Part shown: positions 2,445 to 9,093 of the stretch, in pieces
Position numbering within the stretch: position 1 is the stretch's first letter
Layout: every line of letters starts with the position of its first letter
NCBI GenBank assembly: GCA_016932935.1
Contig: JAFGBX010000082.1
Span: 1 to 56,792 of the forward strand
Length of the DNA: 56,792 nt
Direction of reading: 5' to 3'
From: Promethearchaeota archaeon
Lineage (GTDB): Archaea; Asgardarchaeota; Lokiarchaeia; Sigyniarchaeales; Sigyniarchaeaceae
Position numbers and translations under genes: made by a program
Notes under the pieces: generated by a model
What the model was told of the DNA's origin: nothing
Seen by the model: the letters and a program-made list of their open reading frames with translations, nothing else
Databases searched by the model: none

Positions 2445-2543
2445 TGGTGGTGGTGGCGGGGTTCGAACCCGCGAAACACCCGCGTTGTGCTCGGGATCTC
2501 GTTCCTGATAAGCACGGTGCCATGGCCGCTAGGCGACACCACC
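2445..2543 (-). tRNA. tRNA gene with an insertion (probable intron) of about 12 nt (class II fold) or 21 nt (class I fold) in the anticodon arm; isotype unresolved
   Basis: Minus strand: acceptor GGTGGTG/CACCACC; D arm GCCT-AGCGGCCA-TGGC (A14 and GG present); T arm GCGGG-TTCGAAC-CCCGC; discriminator A; encoded CCA. The gene is 99 nt. The anticodon region CCGTGCTTATCAGGAACGAGATCCCGAGCACAACGCGG is too long for a plain loop. A class I fold (stem CCGTG/CGCGG, 21-nt intron, Val-like) and a class II fold (stem GTGCT/AGCAC with variable arm AACG-CGGG-TGTT) are both imperfect. Confidence 0.6.
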
Positions 2544-2547
2544 ATGG

Positions 2548-2624
2548 TGGAGGGCAGCACGGGACTCGCACCCGTGGCCGTGCAGCTTTGCGGGCTGCTG
2601 CATCGGCTTCCCTGCCAGCTGCTC
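2548..2624 (-). tRNA. tRNA-Cys(GCA)-like gene with atypical features
   Basis: Minus strand, 77 nt: acceptor GAGCAGC/GCTGCCC (A2.C71 mismatch); anticodon stem GCAGC/GCTGC; loop CCGCAAA (GCA, but C33 instead of U33); T arm ACGGG-TGCGAGT-CCCGT (G55 instead of U55); discriminator U73, as expected for Cys; encoded CCA. Segment lengths fit a cloverleaf with a 6-nt variable loop. Confidence 0.5.
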
Positions 2625-2633
2625 GCGGGGACG

Positions 2634-2712
2634 TGGGGCCGCCGGCGGGGTTCCAACCCGCGCCCTGCCGCTTGCGAGGCGGGCGCCAGGCACGCTGCTG
2701 GACGACGGTGGC
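2634..2712 (-). tRNA. Atypical tRNA-like gene with anticodon loop CUCGCAA (CGC) and no G3:U70
   Basis: Minus strand, 79 nt; segment lengths fit a cloverleaf exactly (7/2/4/11/4/1/5/7/5/5/5/7/5/7/1 + CCA). Acceptor GCCACCG/CGGCGGC (A4.C69 mismatch); D loop AGCAGCGTGCC without GG; anticodon stem CCCGC/GCGGC (C27.C43 mismatch); T arm GCGGG-TTGGAAC-CCCGC (G56 instead of C56); discriminator C; encoded CCA. Confidence 0.45.
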
Positions 2713-2720
2713 CTGCACGA

Positions 2721-2827
2721 TGGAGGGGCCGGCGGGAGATCCTGGCGTGACGTGATCCATCCCGCCATTCGAACCCGCGTCGAGTGGGTTACAAACCCAC
2801 CGCAAACGACCGCTATGCGACGACCCC
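2721..2827 (-). tRNA. tRNA-Thr(UGU) with a 30-nt intron in the T-loop
   Basis: Minus strand: GGGGTCG TC GCAT AGCGGTCGT TTGC G GTGGG TTTGTAA CCCAC TCGAC GCGGG TTCGAAT [30 nt] CCCGC CGGCCCC T CCA. After removing 2737..2766, all stems pair apart from a T13.T22 mismatch in the D stem and a U5.G68 wobble in the acceptor stem. A14, G18G19 and U33 are present. Confidence 0.75.
2737..2766 (-). other. Non-canonical tRNA intron at position 59/60 or 60/61 of tRNA-Thr
   Basis: The insert GGCGGGATGGATCACGTCACGCCAGGATCT separates TTCGAAT from the 3' T-stem strand CCCGC. The intron 5' end GGCGGGA is complementary to TCCCGCC, which spans the 3' splice junction, as expected for an exon-intron helix. I could not verify the BHB bulges by eye. 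Confidence 0.6.
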
Positions 2828-3163
2828 GTTGGTGACCGGTGTAGGACGGTCGAGCCAGGTGCCCGGAGGGAGGCCCCGTAGGAGCAGGACGAGCGGGATC
2901 GCGGACGGGTGGAGTTGGGCGCTCCTTACCGCGCGTGCTCATGCACGCGAAACGGGACACGTGGCCTCGGCTGTCGCCATGCAGACCGTCGATATCGAAG
3001 CGGCTGTGTGTAATGCGGGGGCCATCGTGATCCACGCTCGGCAGTTAATACCTCCGGGTTCAATGTGGCGTGGCATCCTTATAAACGCTCCGGGGACGAG
3101 CGCCGCGTGCCGATGCCCCCGCGATGTCGCGGGTTCACCGTGGTGGTGGGCAATCAGACCGCA

Positions 3164-3186
3164 GAAAAAAAGGGAGAAGGGAAAAA
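3164..3186 (-). terminator. Oligo-T tract downstream of the histone gene
   Basis: The minus strand reads TTTTTCCCTTCTCCCTTTTTTTT about 45-65 nt after the histone stop codon. This is the archaeal style of oligo-T termination signal. Confidence 0.4.
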
Positions 3187-3228
3187 CTCTTCGGATCTTG
3201 ACCGGGAATCGAGCCGTGTCCGCAGAAT

Positions 3229-3444
3229 TTACTTCATCTTCAAGACAAGGTCGATGTCGTCCCGGGTGAGCTTGGTGCGCTTGGAGTGGCGCGTGAGCTT
3301 GAGGGCGGTGCTCGTGACGTCCTTCGCCTTCTCCTCGAGGAACGAGATCAGCAGGTCGACCGCGTCACGGGCGACGATTTGCGCGCCCACGCTCTTCATC
3401 AAGTCCCTCACTGGGCTCCATGCCAGGGCTTTCTTCTTTGCCAT
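3229..3444 (-). CDS. Archaeal histone (HMf-type histone fold)
   Basis: 71 aa: MAKKKALAWSPVRDLMKSVGAQIVARDAVDLLISFLEEKAKDVTSTALKLTRHSKRTKLTRDDIDLVLKM. It aligns by eye with the HMfA/B pattern (LP.AP..R..K..GA.RVS.DA......LEE....I...A..LA.HAGRKT....DI.LA). Confidence 0.85.
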   Translation of the reverse strand: MAKKKALAWSPVRDLMKSVGAQIVARDAVDLLISFLEEKAKDVTSTALKLTRHSKRTKLTRDDIDLVLKMK

Positions 3445-3553
3445 TTTTTATCATCCGCGTGTGGATTTTGTTTTCGTCGAAGCCTGGTCGACAGATACCG
3501 ATAGACACGACGCATCCAACCAAGACTTCTTAGATGCATCAACCACACATGGC

Positions 3554-3562: not shown

Positions 3563-4361
3563 GTTTTGCTGGATCGAGGCAAAACCCGAGGTGCCACCCG
3601 CGATCCTCGCGCCCGCGTGATCGATCCATCGCGCACCGGCCGACAAATTACCCGAGGCAAGAGTGGCAAGACGCGCCCCCACCCGCGGCCTGGCGGGCTT
3701 CCGGCATCTCCCGATCGGCGCGATCTTGCCGACCCGCGGATCGATCCGCCCGCGTGCTCGCGCCGGCACGCGCCCAGTCCGACCGCGGATGAGCCGCCCC
3801 CGTCGCTCGATTCGGGTGCGGAATGCCGCGCCGCCGCTCCGGGTCAAGTCGGATCCACGGGAGCCGGTTCGTGTCGATCGGGCCTGGAGCGGGGGAAGAT
3901 CCCTCCCGCCAACCACGGCGAGCGCCGGCGCGCGATCGGTGCCCGAGCGGGAACCGCCGGGATCCGCGGGGAGCTGGTTCTCCGGTGCCAAGGGGTCACG
4001 ATCATCGGGCGATCCTCCGATCATGGAGGGAGATTCCAGGAGGACGCGAAAACAAGAGGATTGTTCGGCATCCTGGCGAACGGATTCGACCCGATGGGCT
4101 TCTCGGTGCCTCCTCGCGCCGCACCGCGGGGAGCTCGTGCATCGGCCTCGCGTGAGATCGCGCCAAAACGTAGATGCAAGCCGGACGAGGCATCCTACGA
4201 GCAAGTGTGATGGCCATGACGTGCCCACCTCGATGAGTTGGGCCACGGCGCAGCGTGATTACCTCATGCCCGCGTGCGGCCAACAAGCCATTGTTTTGCT
4301 GAAGATAGGCGAGGTCGATCGGCCCGTGTTTTTCTTTCCCATCAGGCGAGGCATGTCGCGC

Positions 4362-4369
4362 ATTTAAAC
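4362..4369 (+). promoter_or_regulatory. TATA box for the SPL-like radical SAM gene
   Basis: ATTTAAAC is centred about 29 nt upstream of ATG 4395. That spacing fits a leaderless or short-leader archaeal mRNA. Confidence 0.5.
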
Positions 4370-4394
4370 CGGGAACCCGCTCTAGCAACTGGAC

Positions 4395-5630
4395 ATGATA
4401 CTGCCAGGGATCGACGCGGTACACGTCGTCGACCGCGTCCACGGCGACCCCCTCGCCGAGCGGCGCCTCCAGCGCTTCGTCGCCGCGTTGAAGCCACGCG
4501 AGGTCATCGACGTCGACGACGACGGGTTGGAGCATCTCGTGCGCGAGATCGGGGGCACGCGCGGCCACGAGCTCCGCACCGGTGCGTACCGCCGCCGGGG
4601 CCCGCCGGCCATCATCTTCAACGCGTTCCGCCACGACGAAAAAGACCTCGCCAAGGCCAGGAAGGCGCACCCGTCCCTCGACACGTCCATGCTCCTCGGC
4701 CAGGGCGCGGTCACGACCCGCGCCAAGATCAACCTCCACGGCCCCGACTGGTGCGCGTGCCAGGCCGGCGTCGAGTTCCATTCCCTCTACGGTTGCCTCC
4801 ACGCGTGCGATTACTGCCACGTCGAAAACTACCTGAACGTCATGCTCGACCTCGAGTGGCTCGCCGGCGTCTTCGAGCGCGCCGTCGCCATGAACCCGGG
4901 CCAGCAGCTCTACAAGTACGACAACCATTCCGACACGATCTGCCTCGAACCCGAGTACGGCGCGTCTGAGCTGTTCGTGAACCTCTTCGCGGGGCTCCCC
5001 GGCAAGTACCTCCTCCTCTACACGAAGAGCGACAACGTCGACCACCTGCTCGGCCTCGACCACGGCGGGCACACGATCGTCAACTGGAGCTTGTCACCCC
5101 GCACCCAGAGCACGCGCGTCGAGAAGGGCACCCCGCCGGTCGCCCGCCGCATCGAGGCCATGGCGAAGTGCCAGGCCGCGGGCTACCGGGTGCGCGCCCG
5201 GTTCTCGCCCATCGTCCCCGTCGCAGGCTGGCGGGAGGATTACGCGGCGATGGCCGAGGAGCTGTACGGCAGCGCCGAGCCCGACGTGGTCACGCTCGAC
5301 GTGGTTGGCTTCATGAGCCCGACCCAGATGAAGGCCTCGCTGGACACGGCGCTGTTCGACGACAAGGCGAGGGCGTTGCTCGACGAGCAGGAACGACTCG
5401 ACAGGCCCAAGTGGGGGAAGCACGTGTTCCCGCACGCCTACCGCAAGGAGCTCTACGAGCACGTGATCGGCGAGATCCGGCGCCACCGGCCCGGCCAGGT
5501 CGTCTCCATCTGCAACGAGACGTTCGACATGTGGGATGACCTGGCGCCGCTGCTCGGCGCCAACGCGGACCCCGAGCGCTTCACGTGCTGCTGCGGGCCG
5601 AACTCGGTGCCGGGCGTGCACTTGCTCTGA
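4395..5630 (+). CDS. Radical SAM protein, spore-photoproduct-lyase (SplB)-like family
   Basis: 411 aa with CxxxCxxC in YGCLHACDYCHVENY, and an SPL-like context (LLYTKSDNVDHLL, SLSP....RVEKGTP....RIEA). High GC3 typical of real genes here. The antisense ORF 4002..5072 is a shadow. Confidence 0.65.
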   Translation: MILPGIDAVHVVDRVHGDPLAERRLQRFVAALKPREVIDVDDDGLEHLVREIGGTRGHELRTGAYRRRGPPAIIFNAFRHDEKDLAKARKAHPSLDTSMLLGQGAVTTRAKINLHGPDWCACQAGVEFHSLYGCLHACDYCHVENYLNVMLDLEWLAGVFERAVAMNPGQQLYKYDNHSDTICLEPEYGASELFVNLFAGLPGKYLLLYTKSDNVDHLLGLDHGGHTIVNWSLSPRTQSTRVEKGTPPVARRIEAMAKCQAAGYRVRARFSPIVPVAGWREDYAAMAEELYGSAEPDVVTLDVVGFMSPTQMKASLDTALFDDKARALLDEQERLDRPKWGKHVFPHAYRKELYEHVIGEIRRHRPGQVVSICNETFDMWDDLAPLLGANADPERFTCCCGPNSVPGVHLL

Positions 5631-5683
5631 CGGGAGCGGCACGGGCTGCGCGCTACCGCCCCGTTGCCACGGCCATGGGCACG

Positions 5684-6184
5684 CTACATCGCTTTGGGCC
5701 CCACCCAGAGGCTGAGCCGCAAGCTGTTGGCGCGCTTCGTGAGCTCGCACTCCTTCGAGTGCTCGCACAAGCAAAGGGGGACGTAGCACCAGCGCTTGTC
5801 GCTCTCGACCTCCTGGAGTAGGAACTGCAATCTGTTGACGAGGAAGCAGTTCTGGTTCAGGACATCGAGATCGTCACCGCAAGCCACCAGCTTGTGCCAC
5901 GGCTTCTCCAGGACCAGGCACATGCCTTCCTTGTGCTTGAAGCCAAACAGGAACTGTAACCTCGGGAGGATGAAGCTGCTGGCGATGACCTTGCGCTCGT
6001 ATAGTATCCTCGTGTTGTAGAAGTCCTCGAGCATGGATCTCATGGACTTGTAGTATGGGTTCTCCCGATCCTCGTCGGTGATCTCCATGACGATGAAGTC
6101 CGACTTGACGGCCTTGTCGACGAGATCGATCAGCCCTTCCGGCAGCGGGTCGGAATCGTCGTGGTTGTCGAGGTGGGCTGCCAT
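5684..6184 (-). CDS. Hypothetical protein (166 aa), lower GC
   Basis: Clean ATG ORF with balanced, non-shadow composition (MAAHLDNHDDSDPLPEGLIDLVDKAVKSDFIVMEITDEDRENPYYKSM...). It starts 18 nt downstream of the MBL gene stop on the same strand. I recognise no family. Confidence 0.6.
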   Translation of the reverse strand: MAAHLDNHDDSDPLPEGLIDLVDKAVKSDFIVMEITDEDRENPYYKSMRSMLEDFYNTRILYERKVIASSFILPRLQFLFGFKHKEGMCLVLEKPWHKLVACGDDLDVLNQNCFLVNRLQFLLQEVESDKRWCYVPLCLCEHSKECELTKRANSLRLSLWVGPKAM

Positions 6185-6202
6185 GCGCCGTTCACGTCCG
6201 GG

Positions 6203-6961
6203 TTATCGACACGCCGTTTCGTCCGCCTCGTCGGGCAATTCCCGTCGGCGGGTGGCCTTCTTGTAGCTCTGGAAAGGGTGCCCGTGGCCGGGGATGATCA
6301 AGTCGGCGACCCGGCTAATCTCCCTCATGGACTCGATCGCCTTCGCTTCCGAATAGAAGTCGCCGTTGTACGGCCAGACGGCGTCGTGGTCGTAGTATGA
6401 CTGCGACACGATAGCGTCGCCCGCGACGACGATGACGGTTTGCTTGTAGTGGACGAGGGCGGAATGGTGGTGTTCGTTGTGGCCTGGCGTTGGGAACACG
6501 GAGACGCCAGGCACCCATTCTGTACGTGGTTCGAGGCGCTCGAGGGGATTCTTGATGCCGAGGAACCCCGAGAGCATCGGGGGTGCCATCGCAGGTGATG
6601 ACCCGTACCTGAGCCGCGCCAAGGGAAATAGGATGGCGTTGCCGACGTGGTCATGATGCCAGTGGGTGATGAAGATCTCCTCGACGTCCTTCGTGCTGTA
6701 CCCGTGCACGGAGAGGGAGGCCTCGACGTGGCGATTGTTGAGTTCGAGGTTTTTCGAGCTCATATCCATCTCGTTACGAAATCCCGTGTCAATGAGAACG
6801 ACTCTTCCGTTCGATTCGATCAAGACGACGCTAGACTCCCCGGCCACACCCATATCCTTCTTTACCCTTGCCGTGGCACCGCCGGGTTGTTCGCCACGTT
6901 CTATGGAGAGGCTACCAGGCTGAAGGAGGAGGATCTTGTCGACGCGGTTCACGATATCCAC
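6203..6961 (-). CDS. Metallo-beta-lactamase fold hydrolase
   Basis: Contains VVLIDTGF, the HxHxDH motif as ITHWHHDHVGN, then TPGHNEHH and IIPGHGHPF. The track ORF (to 7351) has an R/P-rich N-terminus. I trimmed to GTG 6961 (VDIVNRVDKILLLQPGSLSIE...); GTG 6988 and ATG 6853 are alternatives. Confidence 0.75.
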   Translation of the reverse strand: MDIVNRVDKILLLQPGSLSIERGEQPGGATARVKKDMGVAGESSVVLIESNGRVVLIDTGFRNEMDMSSKNLELNNRHVEASLSVHGYSTKDVEEIFITHWHHDHVGNAILFPLARLRYGSSPAMAPPMLSGFLGIKNPLERLEPRTEWVPGVSVFPTPGHNEHHHSALVHYKQTVIVVAGDAIVSQSYYDHDAVWPYNGDFYSEAKAIESMREISRVADLIIPGHGHPFQSYKKATRRRELPDEADETACR

Positions 6962-7215
6962 CTTGTTGGTTCCCCATACTGCCTTCACGGCAGGCCACGC
7001 TCCCGTGCAAGCGCGGCCCAATACTCCCTCCGCGCCACACGAATTAGAAGCCTCGGGAACGATCCGTCCTTGCCCGTGCGCCCGGCGCGCCCCTGGTCGG
7101 CCCCGCTCCCGGCACGCCCGCGCGGGGCGGCCCGGCAGCTGCCGCTCACAGGCCACGCATGGCGTGGGGCGCGGTGGGGGATCTCCTTCGGCGGGACGGG
7201 GTGTTCCACCAGCCA

Positions 7216-9093
7216 TCACCCCCGATGCCGCTCGAGGAACCGCCGCAAGCCATCGACGACCCCCTCCCAGAACGACTCGGAGATGCGCGTCTCGACGAGC
7301 GCGGGGTCGGCCTCGATGTCCCGCTTCAATGACACGGCGGTGCGGAAGCATACCTCGGCCTCGGCGAGACGGCCAGCGTCCTCCTCGAAGCTACCAAGCG
7401 CCCCCCAAGCGCCGGGGTTGAACGGGTTTTCCTTGAGGGCGATCTCCACACACCGCCTCGCATCGTGCGGATCCCCGGCCTCCTCGTGGAAGATGTGCAG
7501 GTTGTACCAGGCGATGGCATGGTGTGGCTGGTGGACGATCGCAGCTCTGTAGCAGAACGCGGCATCAGGCCTCGCCTTTAACCGGTCAAGCACGCGTCCC
7601 AGGCGGAACCAGGTCGGCGCGTCTGCGATGCCTCGGGCCGCTTCGGGACGCTGACCCATCGAGTCGATCCCATCCAGCACGACGCCGAGTGCCACCGCCG
7701 ACACCCTCGTGGCCTCCACCTGGTCGAACGGGATGCGTTCAGAACCGCTCCTGGCGACCGCCTCCAGCTCCGCCTGGAACCGCGCGTCGTGGCCTTTTAT
7801 CGCATCGCTAGCTTGCCGGTCGAGCCCCAGCTTGCATGCCTCGAGGTTTGCATCGAGCAGCTTCGTCGCCACGTGCCCAGGGCCGAGCATCGACCCGGCC
7901 ATGCGCGCGGCGCGGCCGTAGACGGCCACGTAGTCGGGGTGGCGCCCGATGCCCACGAAGTCCTCCATCCCGGCGACATCCCCCTCGTCGGCGGCGCGCG
8001 CCTGGAGTATGTCGAGGATGCAGGTCGCAAAGTTCCGGGACACCCTCAAGCCCCCACGCGAGAATACCTCGAGCAGCCCGCGCAACGGGGAGTCGAGGGA
8101 TCCCTGGTCGAAGAGGAACCGCACGAAATCCGCCTTTTCGACGTGCGAGCGGATCGTGGCTTCGTGCGGCTTGATCGCGCCCGGTTCGAGGTAGCGAGAG
8201 AGCCTCCGCGAGCCGTCGGCATCCGGCGCCCCGAAGATGCACCGTGCCATGTTGACGAAGGTGCGAAGCTCGTCGTTCTTGTACATCGGATCGCCCGCGT
8301 CGAGCTTCTCGAACTGGCCCATGACCTGCTCGAACCTCCTCCCGATCGCCGCGTGGCTGATCCACCGGGGATCCGTGACCCCGGCGAGGCGCCCGAGCAG
8401 CTGGTCGTACCGCAAGTCGTCGAACGACGTGCCTCGCGGGTTCGCCTCGGCGGCGGCGACGCGGGCGACGAGCGAGTTCACGAAGAGCGCGGCGGACACC
8501 TCGTTCGCGACCGCCTTGATCCCGTCGCCCACGCCAGCATAATCCGGTGCTTCGACCGCTATCGGCCCGCAGACCCAACGCGCCAGCTTTGGTAGGAGGA
8601 GCGCTTGTTTGGCCACCTGGGCGTTCATGTACGCGTGCACGGCGAAGTAATCTTGATCCACGTCCACGGCGAACCCGGACTCGATCCCGCGCTTGCCGTC
8701 GTACAAGGCCGGGACGGGGCACAGGATGTACGGGGTGCCGGCGACCTCCTGCACCCTGAAGCCCGCTCGACCCGCGATCTCGGCCGCGCCGGCCATTATC
8801 GCAGGCCGCTCGATGCCGGCGGCGCGCATCGCATCCCCCACGACCCTGGGGTCGACCGCCATCGCCAGTATGGAGCCGAGGTAGGCCGCCCGCGAGGCGG
8901 GGTTCCGGTCGAGGTCGCTGAAGGGCCGGAGGCCCTTGCACCCTCCGGACACGGAGACGGCCCCCTCGTGAGGCTTGACGCGCCCATGCGAGAACCGCGT
9001 GCACCTGGCCATTCCCGGAACTTTACGGGCGCTCCCGGTGGGCGCGAGCCCCTTGGCCGTGGTAGCTTTCTTTCCCGCTGGCTCGTGGGTCAT
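7216..9093 (-). CDS. TPR-repeat protein with a large uncharacterised N-terminal domain (paralog A)
   Basis: The C-terminal region reads AAFCYRAAIVHQPHHAIAWYNLHIFHEEAGDPHDARRCVEIALKENPFNPGAWGALGSFEEDAGRLAEAEVCFRTAVSLK, which is three TPR motifs. It is collinear with 9172..11097 over most of its length. The start is uncertain; ATG 9012 is possible. Confidence 0.7.
   Translation of the reverse strand: MTHEPAGKKATTAKGLAPTGSARKVPGMARCTRFSHGRVKPHEGAVSVSGGCKGLRPFSDLDRNPASRAAYLGSILAMAVDPRVVGDAMRAAGIERPAIMAGAAEIAGRAGFRVQEVAGTPYILCPVPALYDGKRGIESGFAVDVDQDYFAVHAYMNAQVAKQALLLPKLARWVCGPIAVEAPDYAGVGDGIKAVANEVSAALFVNSLVARVAAAEANPRGTSFDDLRYDQLLGRLAGVTDPRWISHAAIGRRFEQVMGQFEKLDAGDPMYKNDELRTFVNMARCIFGAPDADGSRRLSRYLEPGAIKPHEATIRSHVEKADFVRFLFDQGSLDSPLRGLLEVFSRGGLRVSRNFATCILDILQARAADEGDVAGMEDFVGIGRHPDYVAVYGRAARMAGSMLGPGHVATKLLDANLEACKLGLDRQASDAIKGHDARFQAELEAVARSGSERIPFDQVEATRVSAVALGVVLDGIDSMGQRPEAARGIADAPTWFRLGRVLDRLKARPDAAFCYRAAIVHQPHHAIAWYNLHIFHEEAGDPHDARRCVEIALKENPFNPGAWGALGSFEEDAGRLAEAEVCFRTAVSLKRDIEADPALVETRISESFWEGVVDGLRRFLERHRG

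Follow-up and report, generated by a model that had tools for sequence, protein, structure and literature searches.

A lineage-type tRNA-Cys and a probably decaying tRNA-Thr derivative in a compact tRNA gene cluster of an Asgard archaeon

Introduction

Few nucleotides in biology are as conserved as U33 and U55, on which gene finders and annotation pipelines rely. Is a tRNA gene that lacks them a decaying copy, an edited or recoded one, or a legitimate variant? The question is raised by the stretch of DNA analyzed here (the window), which is the 56,792-nt contig C186 of a metagenome-assembled genome of a Promethearchaeota archaeon (G000; 82% complete, 5.1 Mb, 61% G+C). The closest named relatives of one window protein were Candidatus Lokiarchaeota (76%) and Candidatus Sigynarchaeota (65%). 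Asgard archaea are the closest prokaryotic relatives of eukaryotes. The minus strand of the window carries four tRNA-shaped genes at 2445-2830, with spacers of 4 to 9 nt and with CCA encoded at every 3' end. Two neighbors in this cluster are odd, namely a gene with the cysteine anticodon GCA (2548-2624, the Cys gene) and a gene with the alanine anticodon CGC (2634-2712, the CGC gene). An initial annotation had listed their departures from tRNA rules and had proposed decaying pseudo-tRNAs, edited tRNAs, or tRNAs of non-standard identity that could be relevant to recoding.

Here we compared both genes with orthologues, with the other tRNA genes of the genome and with those of related genomes. 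The reading that we prefer, and to which we give a probability of about 60%, is that the Cys gene is a conserved, probably functional tRNA of a type belonging to this lineage, and that the CGC gene is probably a decaying tRNA-Thr with a mutated anticodon.

Results

Both genes have positional orthologues

Metagenome contigs were scanned with a pattern derived from the Cys gene, and contig L013 (26 kb, 57% G+C) was found in this way. It carries the same cluster in identical gene order behind a conserved leader, and it has further genes in common with G000 at about 80% DNA identity. Between the window and L013, the exons of the tRNA-Thr(UGU) gene showed 72-88% identity, the Cys gene 78%, the 99-nt gene at the end of the cluster 68%, and the CGC gene 65%. 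The identity of the inter-gene spacers was only 25-53%, which is below the 65-88% of the tRNAs. Judged from this comparison, both odd genes are more than chance, since L013 has an orthologue of each at the same place and the stems show compensatory changes. All features that the initial annotation had listed for the two genes were found in the sequence, on the minus strand and within the CCA-encoding four-gene cluster, and its choice of strand was upheld by orthology and by the covariance model. A plus-strand reading was also considered, for which ARAGORN with a low threshold gave only poor, overlapping calls, and it was rejected.

The Cys gene is structurally constrained

The Cys gene is a 77-nt cloverleaf with the anticodon loop CCGCAAA (C33, anticodon GCA), the T-loop TGCGAGT (G55), an A2.C71 mismatch (position 71 is window position 2553), U73 and CCA. 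ARAGORN detected it at default settings. Searches of 57 kb and of 0.9 kb with the Rfam tRNA model RF00005 did not report the gene, but it scored 31.9 bits (E 1.3e-5) when the 87-nt stretch was searched alone, which is above the gathering score of 29, so the earlier miss was a filter effect. The family covariance model R1, whose training set includes this gene, gave 80.5 bits.

The orthologue, L013:6444-6521, scored 47.7 bits with RF00005. Between the two copies, pairs 6-67, 27-43, 29-41 and 31-39 were altered on both sides yet remained paired, and the anticodon loop CCGCAAA, the T-stem, U73 and CCA were unchanged. Each copy has one mismatch, at a different site (A2.C71 in the window, C12.A23 in L013). 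Because the L013 copy has G2-C71, the A2 of the window would be a derived G-to-A change private to the window copy. The combination of GCA with U73, expected for cysteine, was present in the window gene, in its L013 orthologue and in 17/17 aligned family members. The D-loop GGGAAGCCGA aligned with an invariant AG, so that the gene shows all marks of an alternative elbow, which are the absence of GG, the presence of AG, and a U-G-C-R-A T-loop. The gene would therefore not be defective at G55: together with AG in place of G18G19, this base may form an alternative D-loop/T-loop elbow in a structurally constrained, probably functional tRNA-Cys whose cysteine identity set is intact. We infer from these patterns that the gene is expressed and charged.

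AG/G55 is a lineage trait of tRNA-Cys

The pattern scans gave many cloverleaf tRNA-Cys genes with the same anticodon loop, the same T-loop type, U73, and AG in place of the D-loop GG. Seventeen distinct C33/G55 tRNA-Cys sequences from unrelated contigs fitted one cloverleaf, with compensatory change in 16/20 pairs and an invariant AG in the D-loop. Among 282 tRNAs from pattern-scan loci and Asgard arrays, those without GG in the D-loop had G55 in 147 cases and U55 in 6, and those with GG had G55 in 16 cases and U55 in 111.

The family covariance model matched 97/101 genomes of the order to which the window belongs. All 19 of the best matches that were inspected (L144-L162, from four families, e.g. 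L144:1501-1576) belonged to one conserved tRNA-Cys type, with the acceptor strand GCCAGCG, the D-loop GAGTAGTTAA with AG, the T-loop TGCAA(A/T)T (G55), and U33. To judge from these sequences, AG/G55 is the ordinary state of tRNA-Cys in this archaeal order and a lineage trait, not a broken rule. Since this tRNA-Cys has G55 but U33, it is C33 that marks the window gene and its orthologue apart, and C33 is what they have in common with the second tRNA set described below.

A further, canonical tRNA-Cys (U33, U55, GG, encoded CCA) was seen at G000:C126:11068-11142 (L163) and at G001:C127:14998-15063 in the same-genus genome G001, and the copy on C126 scored 52.9 bits with RF00005. Given that this canonical copy is common to both species, the genus may have up to three tRNA-Cys designs.

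Similar features were observed outside this lineage. Dense tRNA arrays with G55 in essentially all genes and no D-loop GG were seen in L082, L091, L109 and L111 (Verrucomicrobiota), in L117 (an uncultured marine bacterium; 38 tRNA genes in 8 kb, G55 in 36), and in L010 and L052. Single tRNA-Cys genes with C33 and G55, in which CCA is not encoded, were seen in L085 (Ca. Amesbacteria), L092 (Ca. Paceibacterota) and L099, and this gene may be the only tRNA-Cys of each organism. Of the AG/G55 tRNA-Cys genes from the pattern scans, some thus lay in dense Verrucomicrobiota arrays with G55 in every tRNA, and others stood alone on contigs of Patescibacteria. In the literature searched for G55/A18 or for C33 in tRNA arrays, no paper describing either feature was found.

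Many non-tRNA matches of the Cys-pattern scan appeared by eye to be cobalamin riboswitch cores. A weak local Rfam match to the cobalamin riboswitch at 2548-2575 (11.5 and 8.2 bits) reflects the common T-loop-like motif GGUGCNANUCC, and a riboswitch was rejected at this site.

The CGC gene derives from a tRNA-Thr

The CGC gene is a 79-nt cloverleaf with the anticodon loop CTCGCAA, C3-G70, A4.C69, C73 and CCA. Its D-loop, AGCAGCGTGCC, is without GG, and its T-loop is TTGGAAC (G56). Beyond A4.C69 we found two extra non-pairs, C13.U22 and C27.C43. The RF00005 score was 24.7 bits, under the gathering score of 29, and ARAGORN detected the gene only with a lowered threshold. With U55 and G56, it does not fit the alternative-elbow tRNAs either.

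Its positional orthologue, L013:6243-6318, is a tRNA-Thr(CGU) with the loop CCCGTAA, A4-U69 and U73, which scored 43.8 bits with RF00005. The T-loop of this orthologue, ATCGAAG, is near that of the housekeeping tRNA-Thr(GGU) of G001, ATCAAAG. The 5' strand of the acceptor, GCCACCG, is identical in both copies (GCCACCG/CGGCGGC in the window and GCCACCG/CGGTGGC in L013). The acceptor pairs G1-C72 and C2-G71 are known as identity pairs of tRNA-Thr from bacteria, yeast and archaea, and both are present in the CGC gene; the NGU anticodon of tRNA-Thr is not, as the window copy has CGC. The G3:U70 and A73 of tRNA-Ala are also absent (C3-G70, C73), whereas the genuine Ala(CGC) genes of G000, on C66 and C193, both have them. 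Descent from tRNA-Thr explains why the alanine identity set is missing, and the C3-G70 body suits threonine. Overall similarity to 320 tRNAs did not clearly assign an isotype. A His-like G-1:C73 reading was dropped, as the base that precedes the gene, a G in the window, is T in L013.

In comparison with the orthologue, the CGC gene has C for U at positions 36 (window position 2677), 69 (2641) and 73, its T-loop is altered at 54, 56 and 60, and it has three non-pairs in place of one. Pairs 10-25 and 50-64 are doubly compensated between the two copies, so the fold was selected during much of their divergence. We propose that a U-to-C change at anticodon position 36 of a tRNA-Thr(CGU) gave the gene the look of a tRNA-Ala(CGC), and that the gene would in addition have acquired an altered T-loop and three broken pairs in its stems. 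Judged from these changes, the copy is most likely inactive or dying. Its loss would be tolerable, as the adjacent tRNA-Thr(UGU) can read ACG.

Canonical copies of both isoacceptors, for which the initial annotation had suggested a search, were found elsewhere in the genome: a tRNA-Ala(CGC) on C66 with 74.7 bits, and the tRNA-Cys on C126 mentioned above. That annotation had held that sub-threshold scores together with such copies would indicate plain pseudogenes. Both findings came together for 2634-2712 only, since the Cys gene, at 31.9 bits, lies above 29.

A second tRNA set in the genus

The scattered tRNA genes of G000 were regular: 16/16 had U33, U55 and the D-loop GG, 3/16 encoded CCA, and RF00005 scores reached 74.7 bits. 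A different population was found on contig C193 (L005, 8.6 kb), where 20-21 co-oriented tRNA genes, mostly CCA-encoding, lie within 4.7 kb (3665-8376). G001 has a matching array of at least 30 genes in the same order, split over two contig ends (L002 2602-8720 and L003 46-1816), and a smaller tRNA array was present in genome G002. The array tRNAs are archaeal-type, with A1:U72 in the initiator, C1:G72 and a short variable arm in tRNA-Tyr, and G3:U70 in the Ala tRNAs.

The frequency of C33 was 0/16 in the scattered tRNAs, in comparison with 10/20 on C193 and 15/30 in the G001 arrays. Orthologous array genes of G000 and G001 were 85-99% identical; C33 was retained in 8 pairs, and 2 pairs were polymorphic for U33/C33. 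The array genes Val-CAC and Met had G55 T-loops in both species. C33 and G55 recur and are conserved in the arrays, which marks them as inherited traits of this gene population, not as random damage. A position-36 switch was also found here, between the orthologous, 90% identical array genes L005:5328-5399 (Ile-UAU, G000) and L003:1388-1464 (Val-UAC, G001). Together with the CGC gene, this switch indicates that anticodon drift recurs in the gene population.

Redundancy with the scattered housekeeping genes was seen only for Cys and Ala(CGC), as the 82%-complete assembly of G000 contains no further gene for Thr-UGU, Thr-CGU or Ile-UAU. The window cluster provides isoacceptors (Cys, Thr-UGU) that are absent from the assembled arrays, and we infer from the common packing, encoded CCA and C33 that it belongs functionally to the second set. 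A short-word BLAST search for paralogues within the genome and the arrays found none.

No HNH, integrase or transposase gene was found in or beside the arrays; the only genes there were GNAT, DUF5678, URO-D and amidohydrolase genes. In the array gaps of C193, two genes for GNAT-family acetyltransferases and a DUF5678 gene were observed on the minus strand (L005:4188-5162 and L005:5880-6380), and the corresponding gaps in G001 gave no Pfam match. Three further observations concern individual tRNA genes. One array tRNA-Thr, conserved in both species (L005:8193-8266 and L002:8106-8179), has C33, a compensated anticodon-stem pair and the anticodon AGU, in which A34 is unusual for archaea. A conserved 96-nt tRNA-like gene (L005:7870-7965 and L002:8554-8649) has a normal acceptor stem and CCA. 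The housekeeping tRNA-His of G000 (C388:6236-6306) has A73 and does not encode G-1; it is eukaryote-like in this respect and needs post-transcriptional addition of G-1.

Layout and distribution of the window cluster

The features of the cluster are listed in Table 1. The order of the four tRNA genes, Thr-UGU, Thr-CGU type, Cys-GCA and Ile-UAU type, is conserved, and they are probably co-transcribed.

Table 1. Features of the tRNA cluster and its upstream region in the window
Feature	Position	Strand	Remarks
tRNA-Thr(UGU)	2721..2830	-	30-nt T-loop insert at 2737-2766; CCA encoded; read from sequence
Putative tRNA-Thr(CGU)-derived gene, anticodon CGC	2634..2712	-	C73, CCA; non-pairs 4-69, 13-22, 27-43; RF00005 24.7 bits
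tRNA-Cys(GCA) variant	2548..2624	-	C33, AG for GG in D-loop, G55, A2.C71, U73, CCA; ARAGORN; RF00005 31.9 bits
99-nt tRNA gene	2445..2543	-	anticodon-loop insert; CCA encoded; RF00005 41.6 bits
Non-coding leader upstream of cluster	2831..3059	-	78% identity to L013:5895-6130

The leader of about 230 nt is preceded by a conserved TATA-like TTTATAA at 3079-3085 (window 2831-3085; L013:5870-6130), and its identity to L013 exceeds that of the spacers between the tRNAs. The word TGGATCACG is common to the leader and to the T-loop insert of the Thr-UGU gene. The L013 orthologue of the Thr-UGU gene has an insert at the matching place and a compensated 4-69 pair. The orthologue of the 99-nt gene, L013:6530-6633, scored 42.8 bits with RF00005; its acceptor stem is fully compensated and its insert has a different length. 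Both copies have CTTAT, an insert (21 and 30 nt) and AA between the anticodon-stem strands. This conserved arrangement suggests that 2445-2543 is a tRNA-Ile(UAU) with an insert after position 36. The housekeeping Ile(UAU) gene of G001 (L137, on G001:C97) likewise bears an insert.

When the DNA of 100 relatives (G001 and 99 others) was searched with the window cluster or the L013 cluster, G000 was the sole match. G001 retains a small gene (about 3230-3445 in the window) and the SPL gene, and the DNA left of both is unrelated to the window. In two other relatives, contigs L172 and L173 end at the cluster region or are without it. RNA contigs of four sediment metatranscriptomes covered only 3173-3491 (the small gene) and not the tRNA cluster, which is uninformative, as small structured RNAs are rarely assembled. 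Single-sequence thermodynamic folding gave z values of -0.5 and -0.1 for the pair, with minimum-energy folds that were not cloverleaves, and this too is uninformative for G+C-rich tRNAs.

Discussion

The flagged pair thus appears to consist of a legitimate variant tRNA-Cys and a tRNA-Thr that is most likely dying, and we found no evidence of recoding. The wider meaning lies in the rules that conserved genes can break. In one order the ordinary tRNA-Cys departs from the U55/G18 rule, and in one genus half of a conserved spare set departs from the U33 rule. Such genes will be missed or labelled as pseudogenes by standard tools; the Cys gene was dropped by Rfam filters in the 57-kb search. Asgard archaea now join bacteria, haloarchaea and methanogens as hosts of long spare-tRNA arrays, and two clean position-36 anticodon switches between close relatives were found. 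The Asgard setting and the high frequency of C33 appear to be new.

Several points weigh against our reading. In the Cys-pattern scans the anticodon loop and the T-loop were fixed by the pattern, so that their constancy in the family alignment is no evidence. The same-genus G001 is without the cluster, which is thus dispensable or mobile. Only a single orthologous cluster was available, and the direction of the changes CGU to CGC and G2 to A2 rests on tRNA rules and not on an outgroup. The window cluster and the main array lie on different contigs, so membership in the second set rests on common features. The Cys copy of the window scores 16 bits under its orthologue and has its mismatch, 2-71, near the acceptor end, which could be early decay. 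The CGC gene, for its part, may still be working, since it has two compensated pairs and retains CCA.

It is nevertheless unlikely that the cluster is a redundant relic in which the two genes are simply decaying pseudo-tRNAs. Such decay would fit the scores, which lie far under those of the L013 orthologues (31.9 vs 47.7 bits and 24.7 vs 43.8 bits), as well as the acceptor-stem A.C mismatch in each gene, the absence of the cluster from the sister species G001, the canonical Cys and Ala(CGC) genes elsewhere in the genome, and the frequency of pseudogenes in published tRNA clusters (PMC6333295, PMC8421152). It would not fit the Cys gene. There, four pairs are doubly compensated and the anticodon loop, T-stem, U73 and CCA have not changed, in contrast with spacers of only 25-53% identity, and the supposed defects G55 and C33 are conserved lineage features. 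The proposal of decaying pseudo-tRNAs therefore held for the CGC gene (24.7 bits, three broken pairs, position 36 changed relative to a Thr(CGU) orthologue) and failed for the Cys gene, which passes the model and has four compensatory changes. The CGC gene could instead be a working threonine-bodied tRNA, charged by threonyl-tRNA synthetase (ThrRS) or another synthetase blind to position 36, that places a residue other than alanine at GCG codons as deliberate or conditional mistranslation. For some archaeal ThrRS enzymes the anticodon is reportedly dispensable, and mistranslating tRNAs occur in nature, such as the tRNA-ProA/ProX type of Streptomyces. The acceptor 5' strand identical to that of the Thr(CGU) orthologue, the retained CCA, the two pairs compensated during divergence, and the combination of a GCC... 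acceptor with C73, which array tRNA-Thr genes of other organisms also show, agree with such a role. We consider it improbable all the same, because 3/21 stem pairs are lost, among them 27-43 beside the core, the score is only 24.7 bits, the T-loop differs from that of the orthologue at 54, 56 and 60, the CGC form occurs in one genome only, and no dedicated synthetase gene lies nearby.

Other explanations concern the whole gene population. The cluster and the arrays might not serve mainly for decoding, and could provide stand-by or decoy tRNAs against tRNA-targeting nucleases, or aminoacyl donors to transferases. C33 in half of the second set and its U33/C33 polymorphism between orthologues look as if the U-turn rule were relaxed, and GNAT-family genes lie between the array tRNAs on C193. 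There are also precedents: staphylococcal tRNA-Gly species without G18, G19, U55 and C56 function in cell-wall synthesis and are weak binders of EF-Tu (PMC4574755), and for the long arrays of bacteria, roles as sponges and in stress have been suggested (PMC8421152). We hold this to be improbable, however, as the array includes tRNAs for nearly every amino acid and retains the usual identity elements (G3:U70 in Ala, A1:U72 in the initiator, C1:G72 in Tyr), the ordinary tRNA-Cys of the order also has G55, so that G55 is compatible with translation, and the matching gaps in G001 have no GNAT genes. A bolder form of the functional view gets low odds from us as well: the lineage would keep an expressed and charged second archaeal-type decoding set, with C33 for U33 and an A-G elbow, for example as a stress or nuclease-proof reserve, and the CGC gene would be a live threonine-bodied reader of GCG. 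Repair of the genes by C-to-U RNA editing, which would turn C36 into a Thr anticodon and C69 and C71 into A-U pairs, is very improbable. In mitochondrial tRNAs of plants, C.A mismatches are corrected by such editing, and a cytidine deaminase that modifies archaeal tRNA at position 8 has been described. It agrees with editing that all acceptor-stem mismatches in the gene population are A.C (2-71 and 4-69 in the window, 4-69 in the Ala-CGC gene of C193) and that positions 36, 69 and 73 of the CGC gene are C where the orthologue has T. However, C13.U22 and C27.C43 could not be fixed by C-to-U changes, T-to-C drift in a G+C-rich genome gives the same pattern, and the change in the Cys gene relative to its orthologue is G2 to A and not T71 to C. 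Neither editing nor recoding, as raised by the initial annotation, thus found support.

A lineage-type tRNA-Cys beside a decaying tRNA-Thr, the reading that we prefer, can be set against several known systems. Anticodon-shifted or chimeric tRNAs, as in tRNA gene recruitment and in mistranslators of the tRNA-ProA/ProX type, are known in which a one-base change places a swapped anticodon on a body of another identity, and the functional cases have an intact fold and often a dedicated synthetase. The CGC gene resembles them in having a Thr body with the anticodon of another amino acid, and differs from them in its three broken pairs and in having no partner enzyme.

The long array of Anabaena PCC 7120 comprises 26 tRNAs, of which 23 are charged and three are pseudogenes, and translational stress induces it (Santamaria-Gomez et al., 2021, PMC8421152). 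The arrays described here are similar in that many co-oriented, tightly packed tRNA genes appear to duplicate a housekeeping set, with some pseudogenes (3/26 in Anabaena) and a patchy presence among close relatives. In contrast, the tRNAs here are archaeal-type, as the initiator A1:U72 and the tRNA-Tyr with C1:G72 and a short variable arm show, and some genes bear inserts; the window cluster is a four-gene satellite, and C33 occurs in half of the second set. The main text of PMC8421152 never mentions U33 or the T-loop. Unlike bacterial long arrays, the arrays here have no homing endonuclease or mobility gene seen beside them, and their order is conserved between G000 and G001.

Among archaea, a survey found tRNA gene clusters only in Halobacteria and in the methanogens Methanobrevibacter and Methanosarcina, and in no other archaeal supergroup (Morgado and Vicente, 2019, PMC6333295). 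Those clusters comprise 10-29 archaeal-type tRNA genes, largely redundant, with many pseudogenes and some introns, and in this they appear to be like the present ones; the host here is an Asgard archaeon, and the main array, joined over two G001 contigs, has at least 30 genes. For the elbow, the closest comparison is the non-proteinogenic tRNA-Gly of Staphylococcus, a group of natural, charged tRNAs without G18, G19, U55 and C56 (PMC4574755), which likewise indicates that the 'universal' elbow is replaceable in a working tRNA. The staphylococcal tRNAs have U18/U19 or C18/U19 and act outside the ribosome, whereas here the D-loop AG and the T-loop UGC are found together in what is apparently the ordinary tRNA-Cys of a whole order.

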